Shown here: piece by piece, positions 4,092-30,470 of the stretch
How positions within the stretch are numbered: the stretch's first letter is position 1
Layout of the letters: each line of letters begins with the position of its first letter
NCBI RefSeq assembly: GCF_000341895.1
Contig: NC_020409.1
Location: 3,122,411-3,154,410 of the forward strand
DNA: 32,000 nt
Direction: 5' to 3'
From: Pseudodesulfovibrio piezophilus C1TLV30
Lineage (GTDB): Bacteria; Desulfobacterota; Desulfovibrionia; Desulfovibrionales; Desulfovibrionaceae
Notes under the pieces: model-generated
What the model was told of the DNA's origin: nothing
What the model saw: the letters and a program-made list of their open reading frames with translations, nothing else
Database searches by the model: none
Position numbers and translations under genes: made by a program

Positions 4092-4127
4092 GGTCGCCTT
4101 GCTTCAAGAAAATAAGGGTGAATATTC

Positions 4128-4169
4128 AAAAAAAGGAGGAAACCGTACTCCGAGTTGGTGTGCGGTTCC
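4128..4169 (-). terminator. Rho-independent terminator after the first exosortase-substrate gene
   Basis: On the minus strand, GGAACCG ... CGGTTTCC forms a 7-bp stem with one bulge. It is followed by TCC-TTTTTTT (the A7 run at 4128-4134 on the plus strand). It lies about 30 nt downstream of the stop codon at 4196. Confidence 0.5.
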
Positions 4170-4195
4170 CTTTCTCTCGAAAGATTCTTGTTCAA

Positions 4196-4873: not shown

Positions 4874-4905
4874 CATTCCCTCCATTCTCGTATTTGCAGC
4901 AACAA

Positions 4906-4921
4906 TGAAATATCTGTGCCA
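4906..4921 (-). promoter_or_regulatory. Sigma-54-like -24/-12 element (TGGCACAGATATTTCA), weak -12
   Basis: The minus-strand sequence TTGGCACAGATATTTCA has a perfect -24 TGGCAC. The -12 position reads TC instead of GC. The predicted TSS is about 22 nt upstream of ATG 4873, leaving room for the GGAGGG SD. Near-identical copies occur at 11327-11342 and 16038-16053. Confidence 0.4.
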
Positions 4922-5132
4922 AGAAAAAGAAATGGTTTTTAACATACTGTTTAAAATGGTTAAATAAATATATAGAGGGATGTTGGAAAAGGGGGGAGCG
5001 TCTTTGTCTGATAAATGCAGACATGGATAAACCCGGATATCCATGAAACAATCGGGGGGGAGCCTCAAAAGGCTGTATAAAAACAGACGATATTTGGCGT
5101 TTTGAGAATGGTGGAAGTAGAAGGGCACCGCT

Positions 5133-6338: not shown

Positions 6339-6344
6339 GGGAGT

Positions 6345-7157
6345 CTACTGGCTGAAATGTTTATTTAAAACAACGCCAAGAATGTTGGCCTCACTCAGCA
6401 TTTCAAGGGAAGCCCGGATATCCTCCTGCGAAGTCTTCCCTTCCTCAACAACCAGAATCACCCCGTCCACATAGGTTGAGAAAACAAGGGAGTCCGGCAT
6501 ATCAATGATATGAGGGCAGTCGAAGATGACATAACGATCGGGGTATCGGCTTTTACATTCCTTCACGAGTTGTTGCATTTTGGGCGTACTCAAAAGATCG
6601 GCTGATTCTGTGGTGGCTCGGCAGGCTGGCAGGACAACAAGTTTATCTATCCCCGGATTGACCAGCAGTTCAGGAAGTTCCAGGTGGCCGATGAGATATT
6701 CCTCCAGCCCTCCTTCTTGCCCTCTGCATACACCCATGGTTGTTGCCACACCCGGCCATCGGAGATTCGTATCGACCAGCAGGGCGGTCTGTCGGGCGTC
6801 CCGGGCCAAACTCATGGCGAGGTTGGTCGCGACAATCGTCTTGCCCTCTTTGCGGCGAGGGCTGGTTACCATGATGGAATTAAGCCCATCGGTACGGGTT
6901 ATTTGCAAAATTCTCGCTCGGAGGACGTTGAATGAATCCCTTATATATTGGGCGCTTCCACTGGTAAGTAGGCGATTGCGTTCCAGATGGAGATCGTCGG
7001 CCTCCTGAATCTGGGTCATCCGATAGTTGTGACGAACTGTCGCTTCTTCGGTCTTTTCTTTGTCAGAAGACATGCTGGGGGATGACGGAGAAACCTGCTC
7101 CAAAATGTCGTTTCGCTCGTCTTGAGCCTTTTGTAGTGCCTTGGCTATTTTGCTCAT
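6345..7157 (-). CDS. BY-kinase-like P-loop ATPase (exopolysaccharide / PEP-CTERM locus tyrosine autokinase family)
   Basis: 270 aa. Walker A is SPRRKEGKTIVATNLA, Walker A' is LLVDTNLRWP and Walker B is YVIFDCPH. It lies directly downstream of the Wzz-like gene. Confidence 0.75.
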   Translation of the reverse strand: MSKIAKALQKAQDERNDILEQVSPSSPSMSSDKEKTEEATVRHNYRMTQIQEADDLHLERNRLLTSGSAQYIRDSFNVLRARILQITRTDGLNSIMVTSPRRKEGKTIVATNLAMSLARDARQTALLVDTNLRWPGVATTMGVCRGQEGGLEEYLIGHLELPELLVNPGIDKLVVLPACRATTESADLLSTPKMQQLVKECKSRYPDRYVIFDCPHIIDMPDSLVFSTYVDGVILVVEEGKTSQEDIRASLEMLSEANILGVVLNKHFSQ

Positions 7158-7180
7158 TGGGAGATACCTTTTTTGCTCAG

Positions 7181-8935
7181 CTAAACAATGACCTGAATTT
7201 TGTTCAGGATCTTGAGGGCAATGATGTCCAGCGGGAGCACCAAAAAGTGGACGAGGAGGATTGCGCAGATCACTGCTCCTGCCGAGATGGTGAGGATGAC
7301 AGCCCTTCTGCGGCGTTTCTGTGCCATTTCCTCACTGGTCTGGACATAGGGAATGACGCCGATCACTGGGATTTTGGTCAATAACGCAAGCGAAGTCCTG
7401 TCGTGGATCGAGTGGTCCATAAATTCGGCGACAGAGACAAGGCTGAGGCCGCCTGCTGTTGAGACGATCATGGCGATGATAAGCAGGAGCAGCCTCTTGG
7501 GCTTGTATGGTTTTTCCGGTAGGACAGGAGGTTCTATCAAGGAGAGTTTTTCACCGACATGCTCTTTTTCGAGTTCTTGGGATTGGCGGGCAGAAAGCAC
7601 CTTCTGCATTGTTTCCTGATATTTGACACTGGAGTTGTGATAATCTCGCTGTAAGCTCGTGTACTGCTGCTCAACCTGAGGGCTTTGTTCGATATATGAG
7701 ACATATTGATCATATTTTTTACGAAGCTCTGTCAGCAGGTTTCGTTCATTGCGGATTTCAAGGCTGGTTGCTTTGATTTGCGTTTTGAGGTTGATATACG
7801 CCGGATTTTCCTGGTCCAGATTTTCATTCGATCGCAAGACGCCCTGATTCTTGGACGATACTTGGAGTGAGGCTTTCAGTTCCGCTATTTTCCCTTTGGC
7901 ATTGATGACGTCCGGGTGTTTATTCGTATATTTTTTTTGTAACCGTGCAAGCTTGCGTTCCCATGATCCGAGTTCGGCGTTGATATCTCGTCCCTTGTTT
8001 CTGTGTGTCAATTCAGCCTCAAGCAGGTCGATCTGTCCCTTCAGTTTGATCATGTCCGGGTGTTTTTCCGACCGGCTTGTCTTGTAGGAAAGATACTGGC
8101 TACGCAGAGATTTTAATTCCTCTTCAGGACTCATGATCCGCTTGCCGTCAGCGGAATACGAATAGATGGTCTGATCGACGGTGGCCAGTTGACCTTCCAG
8201 GTAGACCCTGCGATCAGTCAGTGTTTTGATCATTTCCTGTCGGGCATCGATATCTTTTTGAATACGGTCAAGACTTTGCAAGTTCAATTCCATCAATTCC
8301 GGCAGTGAACGATAATTTTTTTCCTTGAAGCTCGCTATTTTCGATTCTGACTTTTGAACATCCTGTCGGAGTTCATCCAGCTGTTTATTCAGGAAGTCGA
8401 GGGTGGTCAGTGCCTTTTCTTCTCGTTGTCTCAGGTTTTGTTCAAGGAAGAGGGAGACGAGGGCGTTCGTTGTTTGTAAAACTTTCTTGGGTGATTTGCC
8501 ATCGAACGAGATGGTAAAGGCGATGGTTGCGGTCGTGGCTCTCCCCGTATTGTTGACAACTTCAGCCTGGATGTTTTCGACTTTGATATTGTCCCGCATT
8601 TTTTGGAGAATCTCTTCAGATGTCAGGCTGTCCTTATATTCGTCATACAAGCCAAAACGATCAATGATAGCCATGAGATTTTGGCGGTTGAAGGCCATTT
8701 GGCTGATTGATTGCAACCGTTCTTCAACATACCCTGTTACAGTAGTTTGAACGAGTTCCTGAGGGACTTCCTGTCCTTCCACCAAAATTGTCGCAGACGA
8801 TGTATAGATTGAAGGCAGCAGGAAGATGATTGCCGCAGTCAGCATGAAAAAAGCGCCTGTTGGAATGGCGAACAGCCAAAATCTCCGCTTGAACGCGTTG
8901 ATGTAAAGTCTGATATCGTTGGTGTTCGTTTCCAT
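7181..8935 (-). CDS. Polysaccharide chain-length determinant (Wzz/GumC-like, PEP-CTERM locus subfamily)
   Basis: 584 aa. It has an N-terminal Wzz-type TM segment (FWLFAIPTGAFFMLTAAIIFLLPSIYTSSATILVE), a long coiled-coil periplasmic region and C-terminal TM helices. Confidence 0.8.
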   Translation of the reverse strand: METNTNDIRLYINAFKRRFWLFAIPTGAFFMLTAAIIFLLPSIYTSSATILVEGQEVPQELVQTTVTGYVEERLQSISQMAFNRQNLMAIIDRFGLYDEYKDSLTSEEILQKMRDNIKVENIQAEVVNNTGRATTATIAFTISFDGKSPKKVLQTTNALVSLFLEQNLRQREEKALTTLDFLNKQLDELRQDVQKSESKIASFKEKNYRSLPELMELNLQSLDRIQKDIDARQEMIKTLTDRRVYLEGQLATVDQTIYSYSADGKRIMSPEEELKSLRSQYLSYKTSRSEKHPDMIKLKGQIDLLEAELTHRNKGRDINAELGSWERKLARLQKKYTNKHPDVINAKGKIAELKASLQVSSKNQGVLRSNENLDQENPAYINLKTQIKATSLEIRNERNLLTELRKKYDQYVSYIEQSPQVEQQYTSLQRDYHNSSVKYQETMQKVLSARQSQELEKEHVGEKLSLIEPPVLPEKPYKPKRLLLLIIAMIVSTAGGLSLVSVAEFMDHSIHDRTSLALLTKIPVIGVIPYVQTSEEMAQKRRRRAVILTISAGAVICAILLVHFLVLPLDIIALKILNKIQVIV

Positions 8936-8946
8936 TGAATCCTCGG

Positions 8947-10158
8947 CTAGAAGAACGTTGGATAGGAGTATTCGAATCGAAGGGCTATCCTGTTCTGTTG
9001 ATCTGTGTTGTGACTGATCCGGTTTTCGATGGATGTGTGTTTGTATTCAAGTCGAATAACTGCATCCTTGGTCCATTTGTATTGTATTGTCGGGCGGAGA
9101 GAAAATGTCTGTTTTTCTGTTTCAGCGACCAGCCCTTCGGTTTCAAGGGTGTAGAATGCTCCTTCGAATGACGCTGTGAGGCGTTCGGTGAATGCATATT
9201 CACTTGATGCCCGCACCCGTGCGCGGGTCGTTGACTCTCCATAAATGGAAGGTGAAATCATTCTGTCCGCTCCCAGAGTGAATTTCCATTTTTCGCGTGC
9301 GTAGGTTCCGGAAATGTCGAAGCTCGGATAGATGTCAGAGGCCGTTTTATCCGTTCCGCCATCCACAGTTGCTATGGAATTGGCGTATCCCAGACCTCCG
9401 TACCCGACGAATTCGAGAAGTTCAGTGGGTCTGTAGCTGAAGCCTCCCATCAAATTGTACACATCCTGCCGGGTATCTCCGTTTGTACGGTCATAGTCAT
9501 AGTGATTGTAGCTTCCCTGAGCCAGGAGGGCGGTTCGTTGGTTGTTCAGGCCGTGACTCCATGTCACCAGACTGCCGCGTTCAGTTGAATCCGGGTTGGT
9601 TTTTCCGGCATATCGTGTCGCAGACAGAGGAATGGTGATGGAGAGTCGGTCTTTTTCCGAAACATTCCAGGATATTCCGGGGGACATTGAGTATCTGCGT
9701 CTCAGGCTTGTGGTTGATTGGGTGCCGGATTGGGCCAGTTCTTCCACAAATGTGTGGTTATAGTCATAACTGGCGTCAAGTTTGAGCTGGAATCGCTCGT
9801 TGAGTTCCTTGCTGCCTTTGAACCAAATGTCATAGTTTTCCCGGTCATATTCGGTGAGATCCTCATAGCGGAAGAGGACCGCCTTGCCGCCTCCCGTGAG
9901 TTCCCAGTCCTCGGCTCTGTATTTCAATTTCATGGAAGGGGTAAGCCTCAGTTCGAGGTCTCCTGTGTCCTTGAAGAGAACATTGTCGTCATATGTCGTT
10001 TGAACCATGATCTTCGGTATGAAAACCGTTTGTTCGGCTCGTGTCGGCGCAGGATAAAGTACGCTCCATACTAGGAGAATGATCCACAGTGTGGTTGAAA
10101 AAGGAATGCGTTGTTTCATCTGGATTCTTTTGGCGCGGGAAGTTCTTGTTGCGGTCAT
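8947..10158 (-). CDS. Outer-membrane beta-barrel protein associated with PEP-CTERM/EPS loci
   Basis: The ORF-track frame runs to 10302 but would then overlap the upstream gene. Plausible starts are ATG 10158 or ATG 10119 (MKQRIPFSTTLWIILLVWSVLYPAPTRA|EQ signal peptide). The sequence shows an alternating beta-strand pattern, is rich in Y/G/S/T/D, and ends in the OMP-type terminus ...RFEYSYPTFF. Confidence 0.7.
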   Translation of the reverse strand: MTATRTSRAKRIQMKQRIPFSTTLWIILLVWSVLYPAPTRAEQTVFIPKIMVQTTYDDNVLFKDTGDLELRLTPSMKLKYRAEDWELTGGGKAVLFRYEDLTEYDRENYDIWFKGSKELNERFQLKLDASYDYNHTFVEELAQSGTQSTTSLRRRYSMSPGISWNVSEKDRLSITIPLSATRYAGKTNPDSTERGSLVTWSHGLNNQRTALLAQGSYNHYDYDRTNGDTRQDVYNLMGGFSYRPTELLEFVGYGGLGYANSIATVDGGTDKTASDIYPSFDISGTYAREKWKFTLGADRMISPSIYGESTTRARVRASSEYAFTERLTASFEGAFYTLETEGLVAETEKQTFSLRPTIQYKWTKDAVIRLEYKHTSIENRISHNTDQQNRIALRFEYSYPTFF

Positions 10159-10162
10159 TGTC

Positions 10163-10747
10163 TTAGGGGATAAGGACCGTATCTCCCGGCAGGAGGGGAA
10201 TATTTTGTTCCAGACCATCTCCTGAGACCGCTTTGACATAATTGAAGGGAAGATATGTTTGTTTTCCCTCTTTTCCGATGCGGACGACGAGAATGTCGTC
10301 ACTTTCCGCGTATGGTGTCATGCCGCCAGCCAAGGCAAGGGCTTGCAAAACAGTGATCTGCCCACTCATCAGATAGACGCCAGGCCGGTTGACCTTGCCC
10401 ACAACGTAGACTTGAGGACTCCCCAATTGTTGCAGCATGATCGTCACCGGTGCATCGGATACATATTCCTTTATACGCTTTTCGAATTCCTTGCGCAATG
10501 CCTCGACTGTTTTCCCGGCTGCTTTCATGTCGCCGACAAGAGGGAAGGAGACCATCCCATCGGGGCGGATGATGACATTGGGGCGGGTCAGAGCTTCATC
10601 TCCCCAAACGGAGACTTCCAAAATGTCCCCAGCTCCGAGCCGAAAATCCGACATTGATGCAGCGTGCGCCGGAGGACACAGAAAAAGAATAGCAAGGGTG
10701 AGTGGAGCGATCAAAGCAAAGGCAAATAAAAAAAAGGGACGTTTCAC
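10163..10747 (-). CDS. Polysaccharide export protein (Wza/EpsE-like, Poly_export + SLBB)
   Basis: 194 aa with a GTG start and a GAGGAAA SD. It has a signal peptide, then FRLGAGDILEVSVWGDEALT...VIIRPDGMVSFPLVGDMKAAGKTVEAL...GQITVLQALALAGG...LLPGDTVLIP. Confidence 0.85.
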   Translation of the reverse strand: MKRPFFLFAFALIAPLTLAILFLCPPAHAASMSDFRLGAGDILEVSVWGDEALTRPNVIIRPDGMVSFPLVGDMKAAGKTVEALRKEFEKRIKEYVSDAPVTIMLQQLGSPQVYVVGKVNRPGVYLMSGQITVLQALALAGGMTPYAESDDILVVRIGKEGKQTYLPFNYVKAVSGDGLEQNIPLLPGDTVLIP

Positions 10748-10760
10748 AGCATTTCCTCGA

Positions 10761-11315
10761 CTACAGTGTCGGATTCATTTTCGTCAGTTGCATGGATGCC
10801 AGTCCATAATCTTTAAGCAGCTTTTCATATGCTTTTTGCCCTTCATCGGATGATCCTGTAATCAGCGCACCCAGTTGTAATTCTTCCCCCATGACCTCAA
10901 TGCGTCTGGCCACGCATTGAAAGCGGATCGGGTCCATGTCGTCGGTGAAGGCAAATATGATTTCGAATCTCAATCCTACAGGATAGTCGGTTATGACACG
11001 GCCACACAGCTTTTTCCCGGAGCAGACAATACGGATGCCGATAGGGGAAATGTCCTTGAGCAAGGCTGGTTGATAGACGACCGATGCACCATTTTCCTCT
11101 TCAATATAAATGATCGCCGGGACGTTGACTTCAACACGTTGAAAAGAACGCCTCTCTTCCTCGGTTGCACATGGAGACTGCTGCGTATGAATATATTCTT
11201 CGACAATTGCTTCAAGCAGAGCTTCAGGAGGCGTACCGAGTTCTTTGGCGATCGTCTCCAGGTCAAGGGCCAGTTCGCCGCTGATGGAATACCGAGGGAA
11301 AACATCTTCAGACAT
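10761..11315 (-). CDS. PilZ-domain protein with a ribbon-helix-helix-like N-terminus (putative c-di-GMP receptor/regulator), first gene of the EPS export operon
   Basis: 184 aa. The PilZ motifs are RSFQR (RxxxR) and DISPIG (DxSxxG). The N-terminus RYSISGELALDLETIAKELGTPPEALLEAIVEEYI has a strand-helix-helix pattern. Its stop codon is 13 nt from the Wza-like start. It is a paralogue of 13177..13704. Confidence 0.7.
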   Translation of the reverse strand: MSEDVFPRYSISGELALDLETIAKELGTPPEALLEAIVEEYIHTQQSPCATEEERRSFQRVEVNVPAIIYIEEENGASVVYQPALLKDISPIGIRIVCSGKKLCGRVITDYPVGLRFEIIFAFTDDMDPIRFQCVARRIEVMGEELQLGALITGSSDEGQKAYEKLLKDYGLASMQLTKMNPTL

Positions 11316-11326
11316 CCTTACCCTAC

Positions 11327-11342
11327 TGAAATAATTGTGCCA
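11327..11342 (-). promoter_or_regulatory. Sigma-54-like element (TGGCACAATTATTTCA), copy B of the recurrent motif
   Basis: The minus strand reads TTTTGGCACAATTATTTCA, immediately upstream of the RHH-PilZ gene. The -12 position reads TC rather than GC. The predicted TSS would fall on the start codon, so its function is uncertain. Confidence 0.3.
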
Positions 11343-11552
11343 AAAGAAAAATAGTTAAGCATATGCTCACCCTTGCTCCGACAAAATACATCTAAGAGAC
11401 CATAAACAATTGCATTCTGGAAAAATCGGACAGGTTGACCGGGAGTATCTCCCGTACTGCTCAGGAAAAAACACCATTTTTACCCCTATGACTTCATTCC
11501 CTCTTCCAAATATTAATTTACCGTGCGATAGAGAAGTCCGATTTCGTTACGT

Positions 11553-11625
11553 TACCAAGCCAAACTGGGTGTGAGCCCAGGACGGAAAGCCACGGGTCTC
11601 TTGGAGATAGCCGGGTTGCCAATTG
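11553..11625 (+). promoter_or_regulatory. Candidate c-di-GMP-I (GEMM) riboswitch aptamer in the prsR leader
   Basis: The sequence reads G-CC-AAA-[CUGGGU-GUGA-GCCCAG]-GAC-GG-AAAGCC-[second hairpin with UCUC/GAGA core]-UAGCCGGGUUGCC. It lines up element by element with the V. cholerae Vc2 aptamer as I recall it: GGGCAAA-[CCAUUC-GAAA-GAGUGG]-GACGCAAAGCC ... UAGCGGGGUUACC. Both have a 6-bp stem capped by a GNRA tetraloop. There is an apparent compensatory change (G..C in Vc2, C60..G85 here) at the pair closing the AAA/GAC internal loop. Confidence 0.6.
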
Positions 11626-11666
11626 AAGTGTGTGGATTTTCACCTTTGATTCTATAGATTGGTGCC

Positions 11667-13106
11667 ATGGCTCGAATTCTGCTGATAGACGATGCACAGG
11701 ACTTTTGTCTGATTTTTGCGACAATGCTCAAGCGCCTTGGGTTTGATTGCATTACTTCGACGAGTCTTGAGGCCGGCCTTCAGGAACTGGAGAAAAACCC
11801 TTTTGATCTCGTTTTTCTCGATGTTTATCTCGGTGCGCACAGCGGGCTTGACCATATCGCCGGTGTCATGAACTCACCGGGCAATCCTGATGTCATCATC
11901 ATCTCGGCCAGCGGCAGCGGAAAAAACGCCGAAGAAGCCATTCAACTCGGCTCATGGGATTTTCTCGTCAAACCCGTGAGTTTTACTGATCTCGAAAAGT
12001 GTATTTCCCGATGTCTCAAGCATAGGGAAGCCAAAAGTCGATTCATTGCCGAATCCACATTCCATCGGGGACCAATTATTGGAGGCAGTCCTCAACTGCT
12101 TCGGGCCATCCAGTGGGTCGGCATCGTTGCCCGGTCCAAGAATAACGTCCTTATTCTTGGCGAAACAGGGACCGGCAAGGAGCTGTTTGCCCGAGCTGTT
12201 CACGAGAATAGTGAGCGGAGCAGTCAATCCTTTACGGTTGTCGATTGTACTAATCTGCCGACGACTTTGGCGCAAAGTATCCTGTTCGGTCATGAGAAAG
12301 GGACTTTTACCGATGCGAAAGAACGGCGGGAGGGGCTTTTCAAACAGGCGGATGGTGGAACCATCTTTTTAGATGAAATTGCGGATCTCGATATGACTAT
12401 CCAGAAGGCCCTTTTACGGGTTTTGCAAGATCATACTTTCCGGCCGCTGAGTTCCAGGAATGAGGTGAAAAGTGATTTTCGCCTCGTGGCCGCGACGAAC
12501 AGGGACCTGCCTCAAATGGTCCATGACGGGACTTTTCGTCAGGATCTCTATTATCGCCTCAAATCATGTATTATCAATCTGCCGCCTTTGAGAGAAAGGG
12601 TAGATGATATCGCTCCCCTGGCTATTCATTATATGAAAAAGATATGCAAGGAGCAGGGGATTCCCAAAAAGAGGTTTTCAGATGATTATCTCCAGGCCTT
12701 GAGGGAATATCACTGGGCAGGGAATGTCCGGGAGTTGATCAATACCGTCAATCATTCCATTTCAAATTCCTTTGATGCAAAGACACTCCATTCCTATCAT
12801 CTTTCAAGGGAATTGCGAGTCTGCCTGGTCAAAAACAATGTTGAAAATGCAGACCAGAAACTGACTACTGATTTCATTCAGCCACTGTCATCGCTCCCTG
12901 ACGATCACTTCAGTCAGGAGGAATTACCGACATTCAAGGAAGTTCGAAAAAAGGTCGTCAGTCAATTGGAGGCGGAATATCTTTTGGAATTGGTCAACCG
13001 GACTGCCGGTGATATCAAAGCAGCTTGCAAGGTGGCAGGATTGTCGAGGGCACGTCTCTACGAACTTCTGCAAAAGCATGAGATCGATTACAAGCACGCA
13101 AGTTAG
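11667..13106 (+). CDS. prsR: Sigma-54-dependent response regulator (NtrC family; PrsR-like PEP-CTERM-locus activator)
   Basis: 479 aa. It has a receiver domain (LLIDD...DLVFLDVYL), an AAA+ sigma-54 interaction domain (GETGTGKELFARAVH, GTIFLDEI, GTFTDA loop, NVRELIN) and a C-terminal Fis-type HTH (AACKVAGLSRARLYELLQKH). Confidence 0.85.
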   Translation: MARILLIDDAQDFCLIFATMLKRLGFDCITSTSLEAGLQELEKNPFDLVFLDVYLGAHSGLDHIAGVMNSPGNPDVIIISASGSGKNAEEAIQLGSWDFLVKPVSFTDLEKCISRCLKHREAKSRFIAESTFHRGPIIGGSPQLLRAIQWVGIVARSKNNVLILGETGTGKELFARAVHENSERSSQSFTVVDCTNLPTTLAQSILFGHEKGTFTDAKERREGLFKQADGGTIFLDEIADLDMTIQKALLRVLQDHTFRPLSSRNEVKSDFRLVAATNRDLPQMVHDGTFRQDLYYRLKSCIINLPPLRERVDDIAPLAIHYMKKICKEQGIPKKRFSDDYLQALREYHWAGNVRELINTVNHSISNSFDAKTLHSYHLSRELRVCLVKNNVENADQKLTTDFIQPLSSLPDDHFSQEELPTFKEVRKKVVSQLEAEYLLELVNRTAGDIKAACKVAGLSRARLYELLQKHEIDYKHAS

Positions 13107-13176
13107 CGCCTTGAAACGCAGGACATATCTTCAGTATACGGAATATCTTGTGAGAGTTGCTTGCAGCGTGCCTTGA

Positions 13177-13704
13177 TTATGGTGAAAATTGTAAAATCTC
13201 TTTGAGGACATCCAGGCTGTCTCCGGTTGATTTGATGAACGCACATCCCAATTCGGAGACATCTTTTTCAAAGACGTGTTTGACCTCACAAGTGAAACAA
13301 ACCGGGTACTGTCTTTCTGGAACCGTAAAAATGATCTCAACGTGATGTCCCACACCAATGATTCTCATCAGGTCTTTCGGCGCGTAATCGCACTGTAACT
13401 TGAGCCCTCCCACAGAGACATCGCGCACTTTCCCCGGTAAAATGGCTGTTCCGACCTCTTCACTGATAGGTCTGGCAACAGCAGAGAGGTTGACAACAGT
13501 GCGGTCGTGTGCCCGCCGGTTGCTGGCCTTGACACCGAGATAATTTTCAATCGCCTTGACTATCAGTTCATTGACATCCCGGTTTTCCAACGTAGCCCTG
13601 TCTTGAAGTGCTTCGTTAATCTCTTCGACCACCTGAAAGCAGATTGTTACTGTATGGCCCACATTTTTTCTCATTTTCAAATGCTCAAGTAGGAAGAGAG
13701 GCAT
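13177..13704 (-). CDS. PilZ-domain protein with a ribbon-helix-helix-like N-terminus (paralogue of 10761..11315)
   Basis: 175 aa; the alternative start ATG 13674 gives MRKNVGHTVTICF.... The N-terminus HTVTICFQVVEEINEALQDRATLENRDVNELIVKAIENYL looks like a CopG/RHH fold. The PilZ motifs are RAHDR (RxxxR) and DVSVGG (DxSxxG). The segment EIIFTVPERQYPVCFTCEV matches EIIFAFTDDMDPIRFQCVA in the paralogue. Confidence 0.7.
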   Translation of the reverse strand: MPLFLLEHLKMRKNVGHTVTICFQVVEEINEALQDRATLENRDVNELIVKAIENYLGVKASNRRAHDRTVVNLSAVARPISEEVGTAILPGKVRDVSVGGLKLQCDYAPKDLMRIIGVGHHVEIIFTVPERQYPVCFTCEVKHVFEKDVSELGCAFIKSTGDSLDVLKEILQFSP

Positions 13705-13782
13705 CCGTTTACACTTCGTTTCATCATCCTGAATCGGAAAAACTTTGGTAAGGCGTGGAGTGAGATTTGCATAATCGAATTA

Positions 13783-13798
13783 AGCCAGTTCCATGCCA
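13783..13798 (-). promoter_or_regulatory. Sigma-54 promoter (TGGCATGGAACTGGCT) upstream of the second RHH-PilZ gene
   Basis: The minus-strand sequence has correct GG-N10-GC spacing, lies about 80 nt upstream of the 13704 start and points toward the gene. Confidence 0.5.
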
Positions 13799-13909
13799 AG
13801 AGAGTTAACCAGCCGAGATGAAAATGTATTTTTGAACAAGTAACTGGGGCTTGGAGAGGGGGAATGTCTAATCTGTTTTTTAAGGACAACAAAGTTTAGT
13901 TAATGAATC

Positions 13910-15583
13910 ATGAGAGTTGATAATTGGAAGATGACAATGGGCAGTTTTCGTCTTTGCCAATGCGAAAGAATGCCAGCTTCAACTGAGTTGAAGTGTATAA
14001 TCAAAAGGTTGCAGGAGTCTCCCGAGGCCTGTGTCGGCTTGATGGCTGGAGGGCGTCTCAAAGGAATTGTGACCATTGAGACTCTTATCGCGAACCTTGA
14101 TTCCCATTCTGGGAGGTTGGAAGGCTCGTCTGCCCTTGAGTGTGCCTCAACGAGTTTTGTGATGACCAGTGGGGATGTTTTCTTCACCGATTTTCTGTAC
14201 GAAAACTCTTCGAAATCATATGACAATATTATTTTAACAAGTTCCCATGGACAAATCAGTCTTGTTGCCAAGGATACTTTTCGTCAAATACTTACCTTTA
14301 AAAACCGCCGGATACGTGAAGTCCTTCCTGTGACTTCCGGGGTCCCGGCTCTTAATGAGAAAGAGAGTTGTCTCAAGGCTCTGGAGCTTTTAAGTCATGA
14401 GGAACACCCGCATGTTGTCAGTTTGGGAAATGATGGCCCAACCGGAGTTGTGACGCGGCACGATATCTCCAGAGCCATTGAAATGCGACAAAACCTTTGG
14501 GATATACGACTTGTTGATGTGGCTCAGAGCAATGTGACTGTCTTGAGGGAGGATATTTCGGCAGAAGAAGCTCTTTTTCAATTGGAGGGAAATCCAAACA
14601 GGCTGATCATTTGCGAGGATTCCGATGGCGGCGTTCGTTCCGTGGTTGATATTATGCAGCTCCGTCGTGCCCTGATCGGTTTGCTCAAGCCGAAAAAATA
14701 TGAAATTGCGTACCAGGGAGTTGCCCAGAGACAGCTCAGTGATATCCTTATTGAACGGGTCATGAGTGATACCATGGGTATAGGAGTGGTGGCTCTGACA
14801 CCCGATCTAGAGATTCAATACAGTAACAGGACAGCGAAAAAACTCTTGGGCCTGAGTTCTGTTTCTCTGAGTAGAAAAAGCGCGTATTCTCTTTCTCATG
14901 ACATCCCGCTTCTGGAAAATGTCGTGCATGCTGTGGGCATGTTGGACCCCGTTTCCAATCCGGTTGTCGATTTGAGCAACAGGACGGATTTTCCCTCGAA
15001 TTATCAGACGAAATTGACAGGGGTATGGAAGAATAATGATCCGAGTGGTTTTATTGTTACCATCCAAAATTCCACTGATGTTCGACTCGCTGAAGCAAAG
15101 CTGCGAAAGCTGGCGTATTACGATGCCTTGACCGGGTTGCCGAATAGGACATTGCTTTTTGAGAGATTGAATATGGAGATCAGGAAAAGCCGCAGGTATA
15201 ATGAAGAGTTTGCAGTGGTGTTTGTTGATTTGAACGGGTTCAAGGGAATCAATGATCGCTATGGTCATCGTTACGGAGATCAGCTTCTTATCAAGGTTGC
15301 CAACCGATTTTCCAATGTCCTGCGTGAAACCGATACGGTTGCCAGGCTCGGTGGCGATGAATTCCTTTTTATTCTCCCTGGCGCATCCTTCATGGAAACA
15401 GCATGGGTTGTCTCCAAGAAGATACTCGCCGTGCTGGATGAGCCGATTGTTTTGGAAGAGGTGACAGTCTCCATCGATGCCAGTTTCGGGACAGCGTACT
15501 TTCCGGAAAATGGGCTGACCCCCGAGGAACTTATCGATTTTGCCGATCAGGAAATGTACGAATCGAAAAGACTTGGACTCTAA
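13910..15583 (+). CDS. CBS-CBS-PAS-GGDEF diguanylate cyclase
   Basis: 557 aa. It contains CBS-like modules (LKGIVTIETLIANL, PTGVVTRHDISRAIEM, VRSVVDIMQLRRAL), a PAS-like segment (MGIGVVALTPDLEIQYSNRTAKKLLG) and a GGDEF domain (YYDALTGLPNR ... RLGGDEFLFIL). An RxxD I-site (RETD) sits 5 residues before GGDEF. The exact start codon is uncertain. Confidence 0.85.
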   Translation: MRVDNWKMTMGSFRLCQCERMPASTELKCIIKRLQESPEACVGLMAGGRLKGIVTIETLIANLDSHSGRLEGSSALECASTSFVMTSGDVFFTDFLYENSSKSYDNIILTSSHGQISLVAKDTFRQILTFKNRRIREVLPVTSGVPALNEKESCLKALELLSHEEHPHVVSLGNDGPTGVVTRHDISRAIEMRQNLWDIRLVDVAQSNVTVLREDISAEEALFQLEGNPNRLIICEDSDGGVRSVVDIMQLRRALIGLLKPKKYEIAYQGVAQRQLSDILIERVMSDTMGIGVVALTPDLEIQYSNRTAKKLLGLSSVSLSRKSAYSLSHDIPLLENVVHAVGMLDPVSNPVVDLSNRTDFPSNYQTKLTGVWKNNDPSGFIVTIQNSTDVRLAEAKLRKLAYYDALTGLPNRTLLFERLNMEIRKSRRYNEEFAVVFVDLNGFKGINDRYGHRYGDQLLIKVANRFSNVLRETDTVARLGGDEFLFILPGASFMETAWVVSKKILAVLDEPIVLEEVTVSIDASFGTAYFPENGLTPEELIDFADQEMYESKRLGL

Positions 15584-15955
15584 ATGCGATTACGAGCAAC
15601 GCAATACTTGTTTCAGGCAGGGTGGTTGGGGGTGCTGACGAGCGTCACTGTTCTCTCTGTTTTACCCGGCAGTGGGCAGCCTGTGCCGTTCTCTTTCATT
15701 GATAAGATTGAGCATTTCAGCGCATATTTTACTCTTTCTCTTTTTGCGGAAGCTCTGCCGGGGTATCAGCGGGGGCGGATGATGTTCTTTCTTGTTGGTT
15801 GGGGTGGATTGATGGAAGTCATCCAGAATTATATCCCCTCCCGTGATCTTTCATTGGGAGATTTTATTTGCAACGCCGTGGGAGTTCTCTGTGGCTCTGT
15901 CGTGGGATTATTCCTGTCTCGGATGACGATGCGCGCTGGTCGAATGCGGTCCTGA
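15584..15955 (+). CDS. VanZ-like family membrane protein
   Basis: 123 aa with 4 predicted TM helices and the DKIEHFSAYF motif typical of VanZ-like proteins. Its ATG directly abuts the stop codon of the GGDEF gene (TAAATG). Confidence 0.6.
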   Translation: MRLRATQYLFQAGWLGVLTSVTVLSVLPGSGQPVPFSFIDKIEHFSAYFTLSLFAEALPGYQRGRMMFFLVGWGGLMEVIQNYIPSRDLSLGDFICNAVGVLCGSVVGLFLSRMTMRAGRMRS

Positions 15956-16115
15956 ATTCTGATGTCTCTCCCCGTTTGGGTGTGGTTGTGGAAAGGGGCT
16001 TTTGTCCTCTTCTCTAAAGAATATGTCCGTTTTTGCTGGAATACTCTGTGCCAGAAAATACGTACGCATATTTAAACAGCCCTAGAGGCTTGATTTTATA
16101 CTACAGTTACCATGT

Positions 16116-16131
16116 TGGCATCATACTCGCT
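16116..16131 (+). promoter_or_regulatory. Sigma-54 promoter (TGGCATCATACTCGCT) for the second exosortase-substrate gene
   Basis: GG-N10-GC spacing is exact. The site lies 36 nt upstream of ATG 16167, leaving a leader of about 25 nt that contains the GAGGAGAG SD. Confidence 0.55.
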
Positions 16132-16166
16132 TTTCTTTGGAAAGCTTATTCAGAGGAGAGAATATT

Positions 16167-16664
16167 ATGCTGAACGCGATACGTTTTATTCTGTTTGCAG
16201 CGGTGTTGAGCTTTCCTGGGATTGCGTCTGCTGCACTTTGGGCAGACAGTGGGACCTATTCGCCATTTAGCGATGGTGAAACCTACGCGGTTTTGGGGAG
16301 TGATGTTGGCTCTCTCGCACCGGGGACCTATGAATTTTCAATCACCTACACCACTCTTGGCACCTGGGATTCAGAATCCGATCCCGAGGATTCCATGATC
16401 CTTTCCGCTTTTTCGGATGGCTATAGCAAGTATTTTGCCGAGGCCGCCAGTGACATGAGCTTTTCCAATACGTACACAAAAACGCTCATCTTTACATTGA
16501 CTTCCGTGCTGAACGGCATTTTTGTTCAGTCGGATGTCACCGGAATCGATGAGAAGTGGGAGTTTGTCAGTGCTTCCATCAATGCGACTCCGGTACCGGG
16601 AGCCTTTTGGTTGCTTGGCAGCGGCCTGCTCGGTTTGATTGGTCTGCGGCGTCGATTGATCTAA
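16167..16664 (+). CDS. Secreted protein with a PEP-CTERM-like (TPVPGA variant) exosortase sorting signal
   Basis: The start is ATG 16167, 6 nt after GAGGAGAG (the ORF-track start 16137 is a non-ATG extension). The signal peptide is MLNAIRFILFAAVLSFPGIASA|AL. The C-terminus is NATPVPGAFWLLGSGLLGLIGLRRRLI. Confidence 0.8.
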   Translation: MLNAIRFILFAAVLSFPGIASAALWADSGTYSPFSDGETYAVLGSDVGSLAPGTYEFSITYTTLGTWDSESDPEDSMILSAFSDGYSKYFAEAASDMSFSNTYTKTLIFTLTSVLNGIFVQSDVTGIDEKWEFVSASINATPVPGAFWLLGSGLLGLIGLRRRLI

Positions 16665-16749: not shown

Positions 16750-16931
16750 TGTTCCATCCCCTCCAGTTTGTTTCGCGTCAAGAAGGGAGAGCTTCTTGAG
16801 GTGATTTATCAATCATGCATGTTCCTTGTGGTGGGGATGGGTAATTGTTCGCTTCCGGTTGCATATATGGTTTTAGCGGAGGCTGTTTGGTGTCGTTCCG
16901 GGGACTGTCAATGCAATCAATGGAGAGATAT

Positions 16932-17921
16932 ATGAAACCATGGTTCCTGTCTTTTTTGAGTATCCTGTTGCTGGTCCTGCCTGCTCAAGCGGAGATGCCT
17001 ATTGTCGGTTTTATTACCGGGGCTTCAGGGTTGGGAGATCTTTCCTTCAACGACATGGGCTATGGTGGGATCAGAAAGGCGCAACAGGAATTCGGATTCA
17101 AGTTGATCGTCCTGGAACCGAAGGGAAATGGAGAAAGCACGGAGCAGGACGTGCTTAAGCTTGTTGCAAAAGCTGATATAATTATACTTCTTGGTGTGCA
17201 GCATACAGAACTTGCCAAGCAGGCAGCCCAAGATAACCCTCACAAAAAGTTTGTTCTCGTTGAAATGCCGGTTAGGGATATGGCGAATATGTCCAGCATC
17301 ATGTTCAAGCAGCATGAAGGGTCGTTTCTTGCCGGAGCCATGGCCGGGTATATGACACAAACAGGTACAGTCGGTTTCATCGGCGGGACAAAAGTGTTGC
17401 CCGTCGAGGCTTTCGAACAAGGCTATCGTGAAGGATTCCTTTACGCCCGCCCTGATGGGACGTTGCGTGTCGAGTATCTTTCTGCTGCTGGCGACTTTTC
17501 CGGGTTCAGCAATCCTGCCAAAGCTTATGGGATAGCCATGGGCCAGTATGAGCAAGGCGCGGATATTGTTTTTGGTGTTGCCGGTTTGTCCGGCAATGGG
17601 GTTATCGAAGCCGCGAGGCGCACGGGGAAACTCGCCATCGGCGTTGATTCCGATCAGGATTCCCTGGCAAAAGGGTTTGTGCTGACGAGCATGATTAAAA
17701 GATTGGACACGGCTCTCTACCATGAATTGCAAGTAATCATGGGTGGTCATTTTTCGCCGGGGATCACGTTCTATGGCCTCGGGAATGGTGGGGTCAGTTT
17801 GAGTCAAATGAAATATACACGGCATCTGATCAACCCGGAAATACTGGAGAAGATCAAGGCAATCAGGAAGGAAATAATCAACGGTGGCATCAAGGTGACA
17901 GATCTGCTTCCCAAAGGATAA
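16932..17921 (+). CDS. BMP-family (basic membrane protein / Med / PnrA-like) periplasmic substrate-binding protein
   Basis: The start is ATG 16932 after GGAGAG. The signal peptide is MKPWFLSFLSILLLVLPAQA|EM. Family-typical stretches include VGFITGASGLGDLSFNDMGYGGIRKAQQEFG and GFIGG...FGVAG...AIGVDSDQ. Confidence 0.75.
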   Translation: MKPWFLSFLSILLLVLPAQAEMPIVGFITGASGLGDLSFNDMGYGGIRKAQQEFGFKLIVLEPKGNGESTEQDVLKLVAKADIIILLGVQHTELAKQAAQDNPHKKFVLVEMPVRDMANMSSIMFKQHEGSFLAGAMAGYMTQTGTVGFIGGTKVLPVEAFEQGYREGFLYARPDGTLRVEYLSAAGDFSGFSNPAKAYGIAMGQYEQGADIVFGVAGLSGNGVIEAARRTGKLAIGVDSDQDSLAKGFVLTSMIKRLDTALYHELQVIMGGHFSPGITFYGLGNGGVSLSQMKYTRHLINPEILEKIKAIRKEIINGGIKVTDLLPKG

Positions 17922-18049: not shown

Positions 18050-20347
18050 ATGAAAAGTCTGAGGATTCGAGTTCTGTTGGGAACTTCATTGATTCTTGTT
18101 GCCTTTTTATTTCTGCTGGGATCGTATGTTATTGTTTCCCAGCGGCAGGAGCTTATAAATACTCTTGAAGATCATGGCCAGCGGATGGCCTCTCTGACTG
18201 CTCGTTCCTGCTCGGAATATATTCAGCGATTCAGCTATTTCCTGATGGAGGATCAAGCCCTCTCCGTGGAGCAGTCCCCGGATGTCGCCTTTTGTGAAAT
18301 TTATGATGTGGAGGGCAAATCCCTTCTCCAGTCCGGTAATATCATTTCCAAGGATCATACTCGCAAGAATTCTCCGTCGTATGGGGGGAATCTGCTCCTG
18401 GTCTCTCAACCCATAATGGCAGGAACCACCCGGATCGGCCGGGTTGATATCGGTCTCAAACTTGAGAGTATTGATCAGGCTATTTCTGAAAAGACGATTC
18501 GTATGGTCATGCTATTCATTCTGCTTGCCCTGTGTTTGATTACCGTTTTGAGCGGTTTTTTCCAGCAACTCTGCATCAAACCCATTCAGGATCTGACTCA
18601 ATACACCCGCAAGGTTGCTCAAGGGGATTTTGTTGTGTTCGATGCTGGGGGCAGAGATGATGAAATTGGCTATCTCGCCCAGAATTTCAATGAAATGAGT
18701 ATGTCTCTCAAGGAATTGTACGGCGGTTTGGAATCCAAGGTTCGGGAGCATACCAACGAGTTGGAAAAAACAAATATGGAATTGCAGGACATGGTTTCAC
18801 ATGCAGAGCGCATGGCTCGGAAAGCGGAAGAAGGAACCCGAGCAAAATCTCAGTTCCTTGCAGCAATGAGCCATGAAATACGAACTCCCATGAATTCCGT
18901 CCTTGGCATGGCCGAAGCCTTGGCAGAAACGGCATTGACCGGTGAACAGAAAAGTTACTTGAATGTGATTCAGGGATCAGGCACCACATTGCTCGGTCTG
19001 ATTGATGATATTCTTGATCTGAGTAAAATTGAGAGTGGGGATGTGGTTGTGGAATCGATTCCTTTTCAGATTGAAGATGTCCTGGCTCATGTTTTCAGCG
19101 TGATGTCTTATGCCGGACATGCAAAGGCTCTTGATTTGGATTACATGATTGCGCCGGAAATCCCCGGTATGGTGCTTGGCGATTCCTATCGATTGCAGCA
19201 GATTCTCATGAATCTGGTCAGCAATGGGATCAAATTCACTCATGCGGGGGCGGTTCATGTTGAAGTTGATGTCCTGTCTCGAAAAGGGACAGGGTTTGGT
19301 TCCTCGGTGGTCCTGCAATTCCTGGTGCGGGATAGCGGGATAGGGATTGTCCCCGAGGCTCTTGATTCGATTTTCGATAAATTTACCCAGGCGGATTCCT
19401 CCACAACCCGTAACTATGGTGGTTCCGGTCTTGGTTTGGCCATCTGCAAATCACTGTGTGAAATGATGGGGGGAAAAATAGCTATAGAAAGTGAGGTGGG
19501 AGTGGGCACCAATGTCCTCTTTAACCTGCCATTTGATGTTGCGCGGGAAACAGCCCCTGGTGCATCTCCTCTTTCCGGCAAACATCTCTTGTTGGTTGAT
19601 GACCGGGATCGGCTTCAGGAACGGCTTGCAGCCCGTATCAGGGGGTGGGGTGGATCGATTGTCATCCGGGAGGATTTGGAGAGCGCAGTGACAGCTGTGG
19701 AAAGCGAAGGGAGCGGGGAAACGTATGACGCGGTTGTCGTCAATACCCCCTTGGGGGGCAAATCCTGGCGAAACGTGGCAGCAGAAATGGTCCAAAGAGG
19801 ACTTGATCCGCAACGGATCATCCTGCTGACGTCAGAGCCTGCCGAGGATGCCGGAGATTTTTACTCCATCGGCGGTATCCTGACAAAACCACCTGGCATG
19901 GAACGGCTCAAGGCCACAATGGAAAAGATGGCAGTCAGAAATTTGCAACCGCAAAAGACGCTGCGATCGTTGGAGATTCTCCTTGTTGAAGACAATGAAG
20001 CCAATGTCATGCTTATTGAAGTGTATCTCAAGGACACGGCGCATACCTTGTCTGTTGCGCATGACGGGCAGGAAGGGTTTTCCTTGTATCGGGAAAAGCG
20101 ATTCGATATTGTCTTTATGGATATCGAAATGCCCGTCCTTGACGGCTATGGCAGCACTCGGATGATTCGGCAATGGGAAAGGGAGAATCGCAAGTCACCA
20201 GTACGTATCATTGCCTTGACTGCTCATGCCCTGAACGAAGTCCGAGAAAAGGCACTCGATGCCGGATGCAATTCCCATTTGACGAAACCTGTTTCCAAGG
20301 AAGCTTTTTTGCGGGCTTTGCGAATCGAAATTGGCCGATTTCACTAA
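18050..20347 (+). CDS. Hybrid sensor histidine kinase (TM-periplasmic-TM-HAMP-HisKA-HATPase-pseudoreceiver-receiver)
   Basis: 765 aa. It has two TM segments flanking a loop of about 130 aa, a HAMP domain, the H-box SHEIRTPMNSV and the G-box GSGLGLAICK. The first REC-like domain has N at the phospho-acceptor position (AVVVNTPL). The second REC domain is canonical (DIVFMDIEMP...LTKP). Confidence 0.85.
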   Translation: MKSLRIRVLLGTSLILVAFLFLLGSYVIVSQRQELINTLEDHGQRMASLTARSCSEYIQRFSYFLMEDQALSVEQSPDVAFCEIYDVEGKSLLQSGNIISKDHTRKNSPSYGGNLLLVSQPIMAGTTRIGRVDIGLKLESIDQAISEKTIRMVMLFILLALCLITVLSGFFQQLCIKPIQDLTQYTRKVAQGDFVVFDAGGRDDEIGYLAQNFNEMSMSLKELYGGLESKVREHTNELEKTNMELQDMVSHAERMARKAEEGTRAKSQFLAAMSHEIRTPMNSVLGMAEALAETALTGEQKSYLNVIQGSGTTLLGLIDDILDLSKIESGDVVVESIPFQIEDVLAHVFSVMSYAGHAKALDLDYMIAPEIPGMVLGDSYRLQQILMNLVSNGIKFTHAGAVHVEVDVLSRKGTGFGSSVVLQFLVRDSGIGIVPEALDSIFDKFTQADSSTTRNYGGSGLGLAICKSLCEMMGGKIAIESEVGVGTNVLFNLPFDVARETAPGASPLSGKHLLLVDDRDRLQERLAARIRGWGGSIVIREDLESAVTAVESEGSGETYDAVVVNTPLGGKSWRNVAAEMVQRGLDPQRIILLTSEPAEDAGDFYSIGGILTKPPGMERLKATMEKMAVRNLQPQKTLRSLEILLVEDNEANVMLIEVYLKDTAHTLSVAHDGQEGFSLYREKRFDIVFMDIEMPVLDGYGSTRMIRQWERENRKSPVRIIALTAHALNEVREKALDAGCNSHLTKPVSKEAFLRALRIEIGRFH

Positions 20348-29021: not shown

Positions 29022-29951
<930 letters not shown>

Positions 29952-30116: not shown

Positions 30117-30470
30117 ATGATGATCATGGTAAGAGCGATTGTACGGCCTGAAAAAGCGGATGATGTCTTGGCTGCCCTGATGGACAATGGTTTTCCGGCA
30201 GTCACCAAATACTCCGTGGCTGGTCGCGGCAAGCAGCGCGGCATCAAGATCGGTGAAGTCACCTATGATGAAATCCCCAAGACCATGCTCATGAGCGTTG
30301 TCAACGCCGCAGACAAGGACTTCGTCATCACGACAATCATGAACGCTGCGCGCTCCGGCACCAAAGGTGCTTTCGGTGATGGTAAGATTTTTGTTTCCGA
30401 AGTCGAGGATGTCTACACCATCAGTTCCGGCGTCAACGATACTGCCGCCGCTTCCGAGGAGGCAGCATAA
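30117..30470 (+). CDS. nifI1: P-II family nitrogenase regulator NifI1
   Basis: 117 aa with a P-II fold (MVRAIVRPEK...AVTKYSVAGRGKQRG...GDGKIFVSEVEDVYTI). It sits between nifH and nifD. Confidence 0.85.
   Translation: MMIMVRAIVRPEKADDVLAALMDNGFPAVTKYSVAGRGKQRGIKIGEVTYDEIPKTMLMSVVNAADKDFVITTIMNAARSGTKGAFGDGKIFVSEVEDVYTISSGVNDTAAASEEAA

Follow-up and report, generated by a model that had tools for sequence, protein, structure and literature searches.

How is cyclic di-GMP (c-di-GMP) connected to the production of an exosortase-linked matrix in sulfate-reducing bacteria? Matrix control by this messenger is well known in Proteobacteria; for sulfate-reducing bacteria, which drive metal corrosion through their biofilms, it has been mapped only poorly. 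We addressed this question in a stretch of 32,000 nucleotides (nt) from Pseudodesulfovibrio piezophilus C1TLV30 (contig NC_020409.1, positions 3,122,411 to 3,154,410; hereafter the window), in which an earlier note had proposed an integrated c-di-GMP circuit embedded in an exosortase locus (10761-15583). The elements in question are a sigma-54 enhancer-binding protein (EBP) whose gene follows a c-di-GMP-I riboswitch, two small proteins predicted to join a ribbon-helix-helix (RHH) domain to a PilZ domain (PilZ-1 and PilZ-2), a diguanylate cyclase, and an exopolysaccharide (EPS) export operon encoding an exosortase. PilZ-1 and the EBP match P. piezophilus C1TLV30 proteins at 100 % identity. We consider it rather probable that, as a conserved module specific to this locus, these elements place the exosortase-linked matrix system, i.e. 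EPS and the exosortase XrtD, under c-di-GMP control.

Each part listed in the earlier note, i.e. a cyclase with an I-site, a GEMM-like leader acting as RNA sensor, two RHH-PilZ paralogues, a sigma-54 EBP as output device and the exosortase locus itself, was recovered at or close to its given coordinates, and the neighbourhood was found to be conserved. The comparison set comprised 13 related Desulfovibrionaceae loci including the window, with EBP identities of 47-100 %. A PilZ gene adjoins the EBP gene in 13/13 loci and, with the exception of one position, is of the RHH type; the riboswitch occupies the EBP leader in nine, an orthologue of the CBS-PAS-GGDEF cyclase is present in five, and an EPS export operon is adjacent in most, often with an exosortase. 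On this distribution, the PilZ-EBP pair is the core of the module, and riboswitch and cyclase are facultative layers.

Riboswitch, both PilZ genes, cyclase and EPS operon are all present in the window and in L001 (EBP identity 100 % and 89 %; XrtD in the window), as well as in L133 (58 %), where the cyclase is a CBS-GGDEF protein. Loci L002-L006 (68-69 %) have the riboswitch, both PilZ genes and the EPS operon and no cyclase; PilZ-1 orthologues were found throughout L001-L006. L008 (D. mangrovi, 54 %) combines PilZ-2 only with a cyclase and an XrtD EPS operon, and has no riboswitch. L009 (51 %) has the riboswitch, PilZ-1 only and a PepA-like PEP-CTERM gene, and no cyclase. The riboswitch is absent from the three most distant loci: L010 (Alkalidesulfovibrio, 49 %) has both PilZ genes, the cyclase and XrtA with PrsK/PrsR; in L011 (Nitratidesulfovibrio, 48 %) PilZ-1 only was found, with no cyclase and no EPS or exosortase genes seen; L012 (Oceanidesulfovibrio, 47 %) has an EPS operon and no cyclase. 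In L012 the EPS operon is headed by a PilZ gene of transmembrane (TM) type, and an RHH-PilZ gene follows a hybrid kinase gene.

In the window, riboswitch and EBP gene (11550-13106, plus strand) are divergent from the PilZ-1 gene (10761-11315, minus strand), which heads the EPS operon, since only 13 nt separate it from the export gene downstream. The PilZ-2 gene (13177-13674, minus strand) is convergent with the EBP gene, and cyclase, VanZ and PEP-CTERM genes (13910-16664, plus strand) are divergent from PilZ-2.

What kind of proteins are PilZ-1 and PilZ-2? PilZ-1 (184 amino acids, aa) and PilZ-2 (165 aa from the annotated ATG, in an open reading frame, ORF, that extends to 13704) scored 29.3 and 33.7 bits against Pfam PilZ (PF07238), for a cutoff of 22.5 bits. 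Both contain the RxxxR and DxSxxG motifs, i.e. RSFQR and DISPIG in PilZ-1, RAHDR and DVSVGG in PilZ-2, and residues R56, R60, S90 and G93 are invariant across 11 PilZ homologues. Their sequences are 28 % identical across 109 aa (E 5e-8), and on this similarity we class them as distant paralogues. A profile built from 18 N-termini aligned over the full length of CopG (1b01/2cpg; E 1.9e-4), followed by AvtR, CopG-family regulators, MazE and the RHH domain of PutA; Pfam RHH_1 run on single N-termini gave weak matches for 2/18 (best E 0.0036). AlphaFold2 monomers consist of an extended segment, a helix-helix pair (H17-30/H34-46; H13-26/H30-45) and then the six-stranded beta-barrel of the PilZ fold, with pLDDT values of 76.5 (PilZ-1 model) and 75.6 (PilZ-2 model). 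Profile and models together point to a CopG-like RHH domain at the N-terminus of both proteins.

The family is small. An exhaustive HMMER search of 1.84 billion representatives returned 289 RHH-PilZ clusters (defined at 50 % identity) at E<=1e-3 and 98 at E<=1e-10, with members mostly of 158-170 aa that match the whole profile. Named members come from Syntrophorhabdaceae and Smithella metagenome-assembled genomes and are annotated only as 'PilZ domain protein'; no fusion of RHH (ribbon-helix-helix/CopG) and PilZ domains was described in the literature searched, and the family appears uncharacterised. A word-index protein search with PilZ-1 returned itself only, a scan of genome contigs with the PilZ-2 profile gave one locus, on the same contig as L003, and a scan of metagenome contigs with PilZ-1 peptide patterns gave nothing.

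We tentatively propose that RHH-PilZ proteins might constitute a new class of c-di-GMP-dependent transcription factors, i.e. a CopG-type DNA binder switched by a canonical PilZ domain, which together with the riboswitch-gated EBP would form a two-tier loop of RNA sensor and protein sensors that determines when, and above which threshold, sulfate reducers and related Thermodesulfobacteriota produce their exosortase-dependent matrix. The DNA-binding repressor CopG aligns over its full length with the N-terminal 45 residues, no membrane segment is present in the proteins, PilZ-2 forms a monocistronic unit outside any EPS operon, and in one metagenomic locus (L123) a lone RHH-PilZ gene stands right behind a riboswitch. 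These four observations argue against a serious rival, to which we give a smaller chance and which is somewhat unlikely in our view: that RHH-PilZ proteins act post-translationally, either as receptors switching on EPS polymerisation or export in the manner of Alg44 and BcsA, or as anti-activators binding the EBP, the RHH domain serving for dimerisation or protein contact. Such a receptor role would fit PilZ-1 as the first, co-transcribed gene of the EPS export operon, and the PilZ-2 barrel, whose top Foldseek matches were Alg44, BcsA, MotI, YcgR and MrkH (E 8e-6 to 1e-3). It is favoured by L012, where the corresponding operon position is taken by the TM-type PilZ, with a hydrophobic N-terminus in place of the RHH domain, as in a membrane-anchored receptor.

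Which genes would the EBP control? Four units of the window have a sigma-54-type promoter with a dyad upstream of it. The PilZ-1/EPS promoter, TTGGCAC-AATTA-TTTCA (11327-11343, minus strand), has the dyad GTCCGATTTTTCCAGA, a candidate EBP site, 89 nt upstream (11416-11431, minus strand). At PilZ-2, the promoter TTGGCAT-GGAAC-TGGCT (13783-13799, minus strand) has GTCCTTAAAAAACAGA 89 nt upstream (13872-13887, minus strand), 23 nt before the divergent GGDEF ORF. The gene for a VPLPA-CTERM sorting-signal protein is preceded by TTGGCAC-AGATA-TTTCA (4906-4922, minus strand), with GTCTGCATTTATCAGA 101 nt upstream (5007-5022, minus strand), and that for a PEP-CTERM protein by TTGGCAT-CATAC-TCGCT (16115-16131, plus strand), with GTCCGTTTTTGCTGGA 91 nt upstream (16025-16040, plus strand). 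The sigma-54-type promoters announced before the substrate genes were thus found, and the statement that one PilZ gene has such a promoter needs correction, both PilZ genes having one.

A loose sigma-54 consensus (<=2 mismatches) gave no enrichment in the window (38 matches vs 31 expected). The sharper pattern TTGGCAY-N5-TNNCW matched only the four expected sites in the 64 kb searched, vs 0.47 expected, each upstream of a module gene and in the correct orientation; as this pattern was derived post hoc, we relied on conservation across loci instead. Upstream of PilZ-2, TTGGCAT-N5-TnGC is invariant in 6/6 close loci amid diverged DNA and is also found in L008 and L010, and PilZ-1 homologues of five genera (L002, L005, L008-L011) are preceded by TGGCAY-N5-TTTCA. 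Over 11 loci, 30 such promoters were collected. A dyad GTCY-N8-YNGA lies 60-130 nt upstream of 24 of them, and at exactly 88-91 nt for 18, always in the same orientation, for about 0.06 expected per window. The genes served are PilZ-1/EPS, PilZ-2, a UDP-sugar pyrophosphorylase (UDPGP), in D. mangrovi also XrtD, and proteins that combine a signal peptide with weak VPLPA/PEP-CTERM matches. The sigma-54 elements, GG at -24 and GC at -12, stand at their fixed 10-nt spacing at 13783-13799 and 16115-16131, and PilZ-2 promoters retain GC at -12. At PilZ-1/EPS and VPLPA promoters, -12 reads TTTCA in every genus examined (window, L002, L005, L008-L011), a conserved T-for-G change that may affect the tightness of activator dependence. 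As a positive control, a perfect sigma-54 consensus, TGGCACGGGGTTTGC (29061-29075, plus strand), was recovered just upstream of nifH.

We read this geometry as the signature of one EBP regulon, in which a fixed-distance dyad joins PilZ genes, EPS operon and VPLPA/PEP-CTERM genes, in keeping with the control layer proposed in the earlier note. Co-localisation suggests that the regulon belongs to the adjacent EBP: dyad-promoter units lie within a few kb of it in every locus, including loci with no other EBP in 20 kb, and its C-terminal helix-turn-helix (HTH; GLSRARLYELLQKH) is conserved wherever the dyad occurs. These two facts make it quite unlikely that promoters and dyads are served by another EBP encoded elsewhere, e.g. 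one of PrsR type, the riboswitch EBP having an unrelated regulon and its position being mere synteny. Desulfovibrio genomes do encode EBPs by the dozen (37 in D. vulgaris; PMC4641369), and in L010 the module has a true PrsK/PrsR pair as its neighbour.

A second candidate operator, the perfect palindrome GGGAGTATCTCCC (11441-11453), lies between the PilZ-1 dyad and the EBP leader. It is the sole perfect match in the window and is not repeated at the other promoters; it is conserved as (G/A)GGA-N5-TCCC in 6/6 close loci, and GGGA-N5-TCCC is absent from L008-L012. Another perfect palindrome, GTCGGATTTTTCCCGAC, occurs at L002 1675-1690, L003 3411-3426 and L006 3683-3698, within the 5' untranslated region (UTR) of the UDP-sugar pyrophosphorylase gene and about 60 nt downstream of its sigma-54 promoter. 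It resembles the upstream dyad, yet lies on the wrong side of the promoter.

The EBP itself (11667-13106, plus strand) has a REC-AAA+-HTH architecture (Response_reg 68 bits; Sigma54_activat, PF00158, 209 bits). Among orthologues at 68-89 % identity, D8, D9, D52, K102 and the Walker A motif GETGTGKE are invariant, as is the sequence GTFTDA in place of the GAFTGA loop. In D. vulgaris EBPs, GAFTDA (DVU2106) and GSFTGA were counted as compatible with activation by Kazakov et al. (PMC4641369); GTFTDA is a double variant, vs these single variants. An identification of the EBP as PrsR was rejected, because its score against the PrsR model TIGR02915 (286.8 bits) is below the cutoff of 502.6, and an NCBIfam scan found no PrsK in the window. 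In L010 (Alkalidesulfovibrio alkalitolerans; 3111-8131, plus strand), a canonical XrtA-EpsI-PrsK-PrsR set (PrsK 520 bits; PrsR 632.5 bits with TIGR02915) adjoins a separate PilZ-EBP-PilZ-GGDEF module, so that two sigma-54 activators stand at one exosortase locus.

The kinase nearest to the EBP is a BarA-like hybrid histidine kinase (18050-20347, plus strand), which follows a Bmp/PnrA-type binding protein (16845-17921, plus strand), both being kept in L001. Both proteins are candidate sensors for phosphorylation of the EBP. No dyad-promoter unit of regular geometry was found before the hybrid kinase gene or the Bmp/PnrA-type gene.

How would c-di-GMP reach this activator? The c-di-GMP-I (GEMM-I) aptamer at 11550-11624 (plus strand) scored 63.3 bits within the Rfam c-di-GMP-I clan (CL00126), vs a gathering score of 59 (RF03167; E 6.8e-13), and ends 42 nt before the EBP ATG on the same strand; this distance is 48-120 nt in the eight other loci, and orthologous aptamers reached 58-60 bits with RF01051, vs a gathering score of 35. 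The consensus fold of seven orthologues (RNAalifold) consists of two hairpins closed by P1 and has 25 pairs, ten of them compensatory, with P1 and P1a included. Presumed ligand-contact nucleotides read as G, A and C in the aptamer alignment, G and A occupying two consensus positions that presumably contact the ligand. The junction G, which we take to be G20 of the Vibrio (Vc2) numbering, is G in 7/7 aligned aptamers.

The best Rfam model is RF03167 (c-di-GMP-I-GGC) for the window, L001 and two metagenomic aptamers (L102, L123). In the 'GGC' variant, as we take the label to mean, a G takes the place of the intercalating A that follows the closing pair of P1a, i.e. the consensus reads ACGC-G-AA vs the canonical ACGC-A-AA. 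We rejected this identity and regard the label as uninformative, because the orthologous aptamers of L002-L006 and L009 prefer the canonical RF01051, the window aptamer has an A opposite the G of model position 37, and the G20 equivalent is G. A ligand other than c-di-GMP, either 3'3'-cyclic GMP-AMP (cGAMP) as for Geobacter GEMM-Ib or a 'GGC'-variant ligand, would agree with the RF03167 assignments and with the known deltaproteobacterial GEMM-I variants that bind cGAMP (PMC7266159). The flip of the label within one orthologous set, the nucleotides at position 37 and at the presumed G20, and the neighbours, i.e. PilZ receptors and a GGDEF protein with the canonical Asp in GHRYGD, all argue against it. 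We regard such a ligand, or the OFF switch discussed below, as unlikely, and favour c-di-GMP as the predicted ligand.

The expression platform (11625-11666, plus strand) has AUUGGUG just before the AUG. Leaders of the window and L009 have no terminator, so that control is most likely exerted at translation, and a terminator-type (transcriptional) riboswitch was rejected. In the sister clade (L002, L003, L005, L006), the 30 nt that surround the start codon are close to the reverse complement of the 5' half of the aptamer (RNAduplex z -2.0 to -3.5 vs 1000 shuffles), the unconstrained minimum free energy lies 6-10 kcal/mol below that of the aptamer-enforced fold, and enforcing the aptamer approximately doubles the accessibility of the ribosome-binding site. 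By these folding criteria, the sister-clade leader has the architecture of a translational ON switch. In the window and L001, GCCAAU, the 3' strand of P1, could form a shorter pairing with AUUGGU just 5' of the AUG, and in L009 the complementarity was not significant (RNAduplex, 1000 shuffles). The direction of the switch was thus resolved just in the sister clade and not in the window, for which the sign is carried over from there, because the complementarity in the window is no better than in shuffles. We infer an ON direction for the window as well, in which the riboswitch would gate EBP translation and the ligand would free the ribosome-binding site. The opposite sign, which shares the low probability given above, could arise if a CACC tract resembling an anti-Shine-Dalgarno sequence (about 11641-11644) occluded GGUG once P1 forms, according to our own reading of the leader; the ON-type architecture of the sister-clade leaders speaks against it.

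Metagenome contigs were scanned for the same aptamer subtype, giving 120 loci. Downstream of these aptamers are mostly signal-peptide proteins, with three GGDEF proteins, one EBP (L102) and one RHH-PilZ (L123); the first downstream ORF matches the EBP described here in 1/120. On the L123 contig, which is unrelated, an aptamer at 2005-2083 (minus strand; 66.9 bits) lies 50 nt upstream of an RHH-PilZ gene (1454-1954; 166 aa), the whole region covering 1454-2083 (minus strand). In this lineage, the RNA sensor would directly control the protein sensor. Another metagenome contig, L114, has five tandem c-di-GMP-I aptamers (562-1020, minus strand; 945-1020, 799-864, 727-792, 635-702 and 562-629) upstream of the gene for a 166-aa signal-peptide protein. 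Each scored 50-56 bits with our own model R1 and 4/5 have no P1; the array is unusually long for a riboswitch.

Local supply of the messenger could come from the CBS-PAS-GGDEF cyclase (13910-15583, plus strand), with Pfam scores of 150 bits for GGDEF (PF00990), 45.7 bits for CBS and 18.3 bits for PAS, the latter below its cutoff. It reads RETD-TVARL-GGDEF, i.e. an intact GGDEF motif with an RxxD I-site five residues ahead, and RETD-x5-GGDEF is also found in the cyclases of L001 and L010. The Asp of its GHRYGD motif is Ser in Hypr GGDEFs, which make cGAMP. Orthologues, which extend to three further lineages, occur in L001, L008, L010 and L133 and share 29-59 % identity over CBS-PAS-GGDEF.

Taken together, we propose that c-di-GMP, supplied locally and partly by the neighbouring cyclase, would at high concentration cause the riboswitch to open the EBP ribosome-binding site. 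The EBP, once phosphorylated on D52, would bind the GTCY-N8-YNGA dyads about 89 nt upstream of the sigma-54 promoters and activate four units, i.e. the PilZ-1-headed EPS/XrtD operon, RHH-PilZ-2, the VPLPA-CTERM gene and the PEP-CTERM gene. The RHH-PilZ proteins, themselves outputs of the regulon, would read c-di-GMP again, probably as c-di-GMP-dependent DNA binders feeding back on the regulon. Overall, the circuit would behave as an AND gate of phosphorylation and c-di-GMP, in which the messenger is read twice, by RNA and then by protein.

Several points weigh against this proposal. All functional claims, including the ligand, the sign of the switch, the pairing of proteins with sites and the role of RHH-PilZ, are inferred from sequence. 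The module can exist without the riboswitch, because 4/13 loci have the PilZ-EBP pair and no riboswitch. The best Rfam model of the window aptamer is the 'GGC' variant; moreover, complementarity between ribosome-binding site and aptamer does not exceed that of shuffles in the window (z -0.2) and L001 (z -0.7). The PilZ-1 and VPLPA promoters (11327-11343, 4906-4922) have TC at -12, where GC is canonical. In the window, only 11 nt separate the PilZ-1 promoter from the ATG (11-14 nt when L001, 13760-13790, is included), which predicts a leaderless or near-leaderless mRNA; the PilZ-1 5' UTR is 25-60 nt in other loci. Finally, the dyad binder could be the EBP or an RHH-PilZ.

The matrix genes on which the module would act form an EPS export/exosortase operon from 10747 down to 1148 on the minus strand (Pfam, NCBIfam). 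Its order is polysaccharide export (10163-10747), outer-membrane barrel (8947-10302), chain-length determinant (7181-8935), Tyr kinase (6345-7157), ATPase (5133-6338), VPLPA-CTERM protein (4196-4876), XrtD-EpsI (2571-4091) and priming sugar transferase (1148-2557), an order also seen in L001-L006, L008 and L133. The exosortase scored 449.2 bits with TIGR04152, vs a cutoff of 400 (exception level), and is fused to an EpsI domain (103 bits); on this score it is assigned to XrtD, of VPLPA-CTERM type. The VPLPA-CTERM protein, a putative XrtD substrate with a signal peptide, starts at an in-frame ATG at 4876 with a Shine-Dalgarno sequence, GGAGGG, 5' of it. Its ORF (4196-5194) scored 25.0 bits with TIGR03370, just under the cutoff of 25.35, and comparably weak matches were found in L002 proteins. 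The PEP-CTERM protein (16167-16664, plus strand; 165 aa) scored 20.3 bits with Pfam, vs a cutoff of 20.7, and weakly with NCBIfam PEP-CTERM families. Between cyclase and PEP-CTERM genes lies a gene for a VanZ-like membrane protein (15584-15955, plus strand; Pfam), a neighbour also present in L001, L002 and L004-L006. Further away, the nifH ORF (29037-29951; Fer4_NifH 408 bits, the match starting at ORF residue 30) is followed by two P-II genes (30117-30470 and 30470-30844) and has an ordinary nif promoter.

If our proposal holds, c-di-GMP would enter sigma-54 transcription via a riboswitch and not via the activator protein, and the module would tie c-di-GMP to exosortase/PEP-CTERM sorting, for which PrsK/PrsR is the only regulation otherwise known. 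Two routes from the messenger to transcription would then meet at one locus. RHH-PilZ would represent an unstudied receptor architecture, and the locus offers a ready testable regulon, with one RNA sensor, one activator, a defined site geometry, four promoters and two receptors. Its ingredients, i.e. c-di-GMP riboswitches, PilZ receptors, c-di-GMP-binding EBPs and sigma-54/PrsR control of PEP-CTERM genes, are already known. In the literature searched, the combination of riboswitch, EBP and RHH-PilZ at an exosortase/EPS locus is not described, as the earlier note had supposed, nor is a c-di-GMP riboswitch gating an EBP as a conserved arrangement; the only mention is a passing remark of 2024 that the only c-di-GMP-I riboswitch of O. 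alaskensis G20 (Oleidesulfovibrio) is part of the leader of a gene of NtrC type annotated 'norR' (PMC11124144).

How does the module compare with known systems? In output the module resembles PrsK/PrsR-RpoN, which shares with it a response-regulator EBP beside an exosortase/EPS locus and sigma-54 promoters before PEP-CTERM genes, and of which Zoogloea offers a further example. Sigma-54/PrsR control of PEP-CTERM/exosortase EPS loci is known from Haft 2006 (PMC1569441) and from floc formation in Aquincola (PMC9850573). Unlike PrsR, the EBP described here fails the PrsR model, has no PrsK adjacent, coexists with PrsK/PrsR in L010, has a riboswitch ahead and PilZ genes on its flanks, and is associated with the exosortase XrtD. 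The input resembles a system of Vibrio cholerae, in which the Vc2 c-di-GMP-I riboswitch lies upstream of tfoY: in both cases, a GEMM-I aptamer leads a transcription-regulator gene and the messenger acts, or is predicted to act, through RNA on a regulon, whereas the regulated gene is here a sigma-54 EBP. FleQ, BerB with BerA (PMC9684580) and VpsR likewise couple c-di-GMP to an AAA+ activator of the EBP family that controls polysaccharide genes, but there c-di-GMP binds the protein or its partner, and here sensing on behalf of the EBP is predicted to be done by its mRNA leader.

For the RHH-PilZ proteins, three comparisons can be made. MrkH of Klebsiella also uses PilZ as the ligand sensor in a DNA-binding regulator of a surface structure, but has a second, PilZ-like N-domain and no RHH, whereas the proteins described here would combine a CopG-like RHH domain and PilZ in about 165 aa. 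CdbA of Myxococcus xanthus (PMC7156744) is an RHH DNA binder with c-di-GMP-dependent activity; it is nucleoid-associated and without PilZ, whereas the ligand module here is a canonical PilZ domain (RxxxR, DxSxxG). Finally, Alg44 and BcsA, the nearest structural matches of the barrel, share with PilZ-1 the position of a PilZ receptor within an EPS operon; they are parts of membrane synthase complexes, whereas RHH-PilZ proteins are predicted to be small, soluble and fused to RHH.

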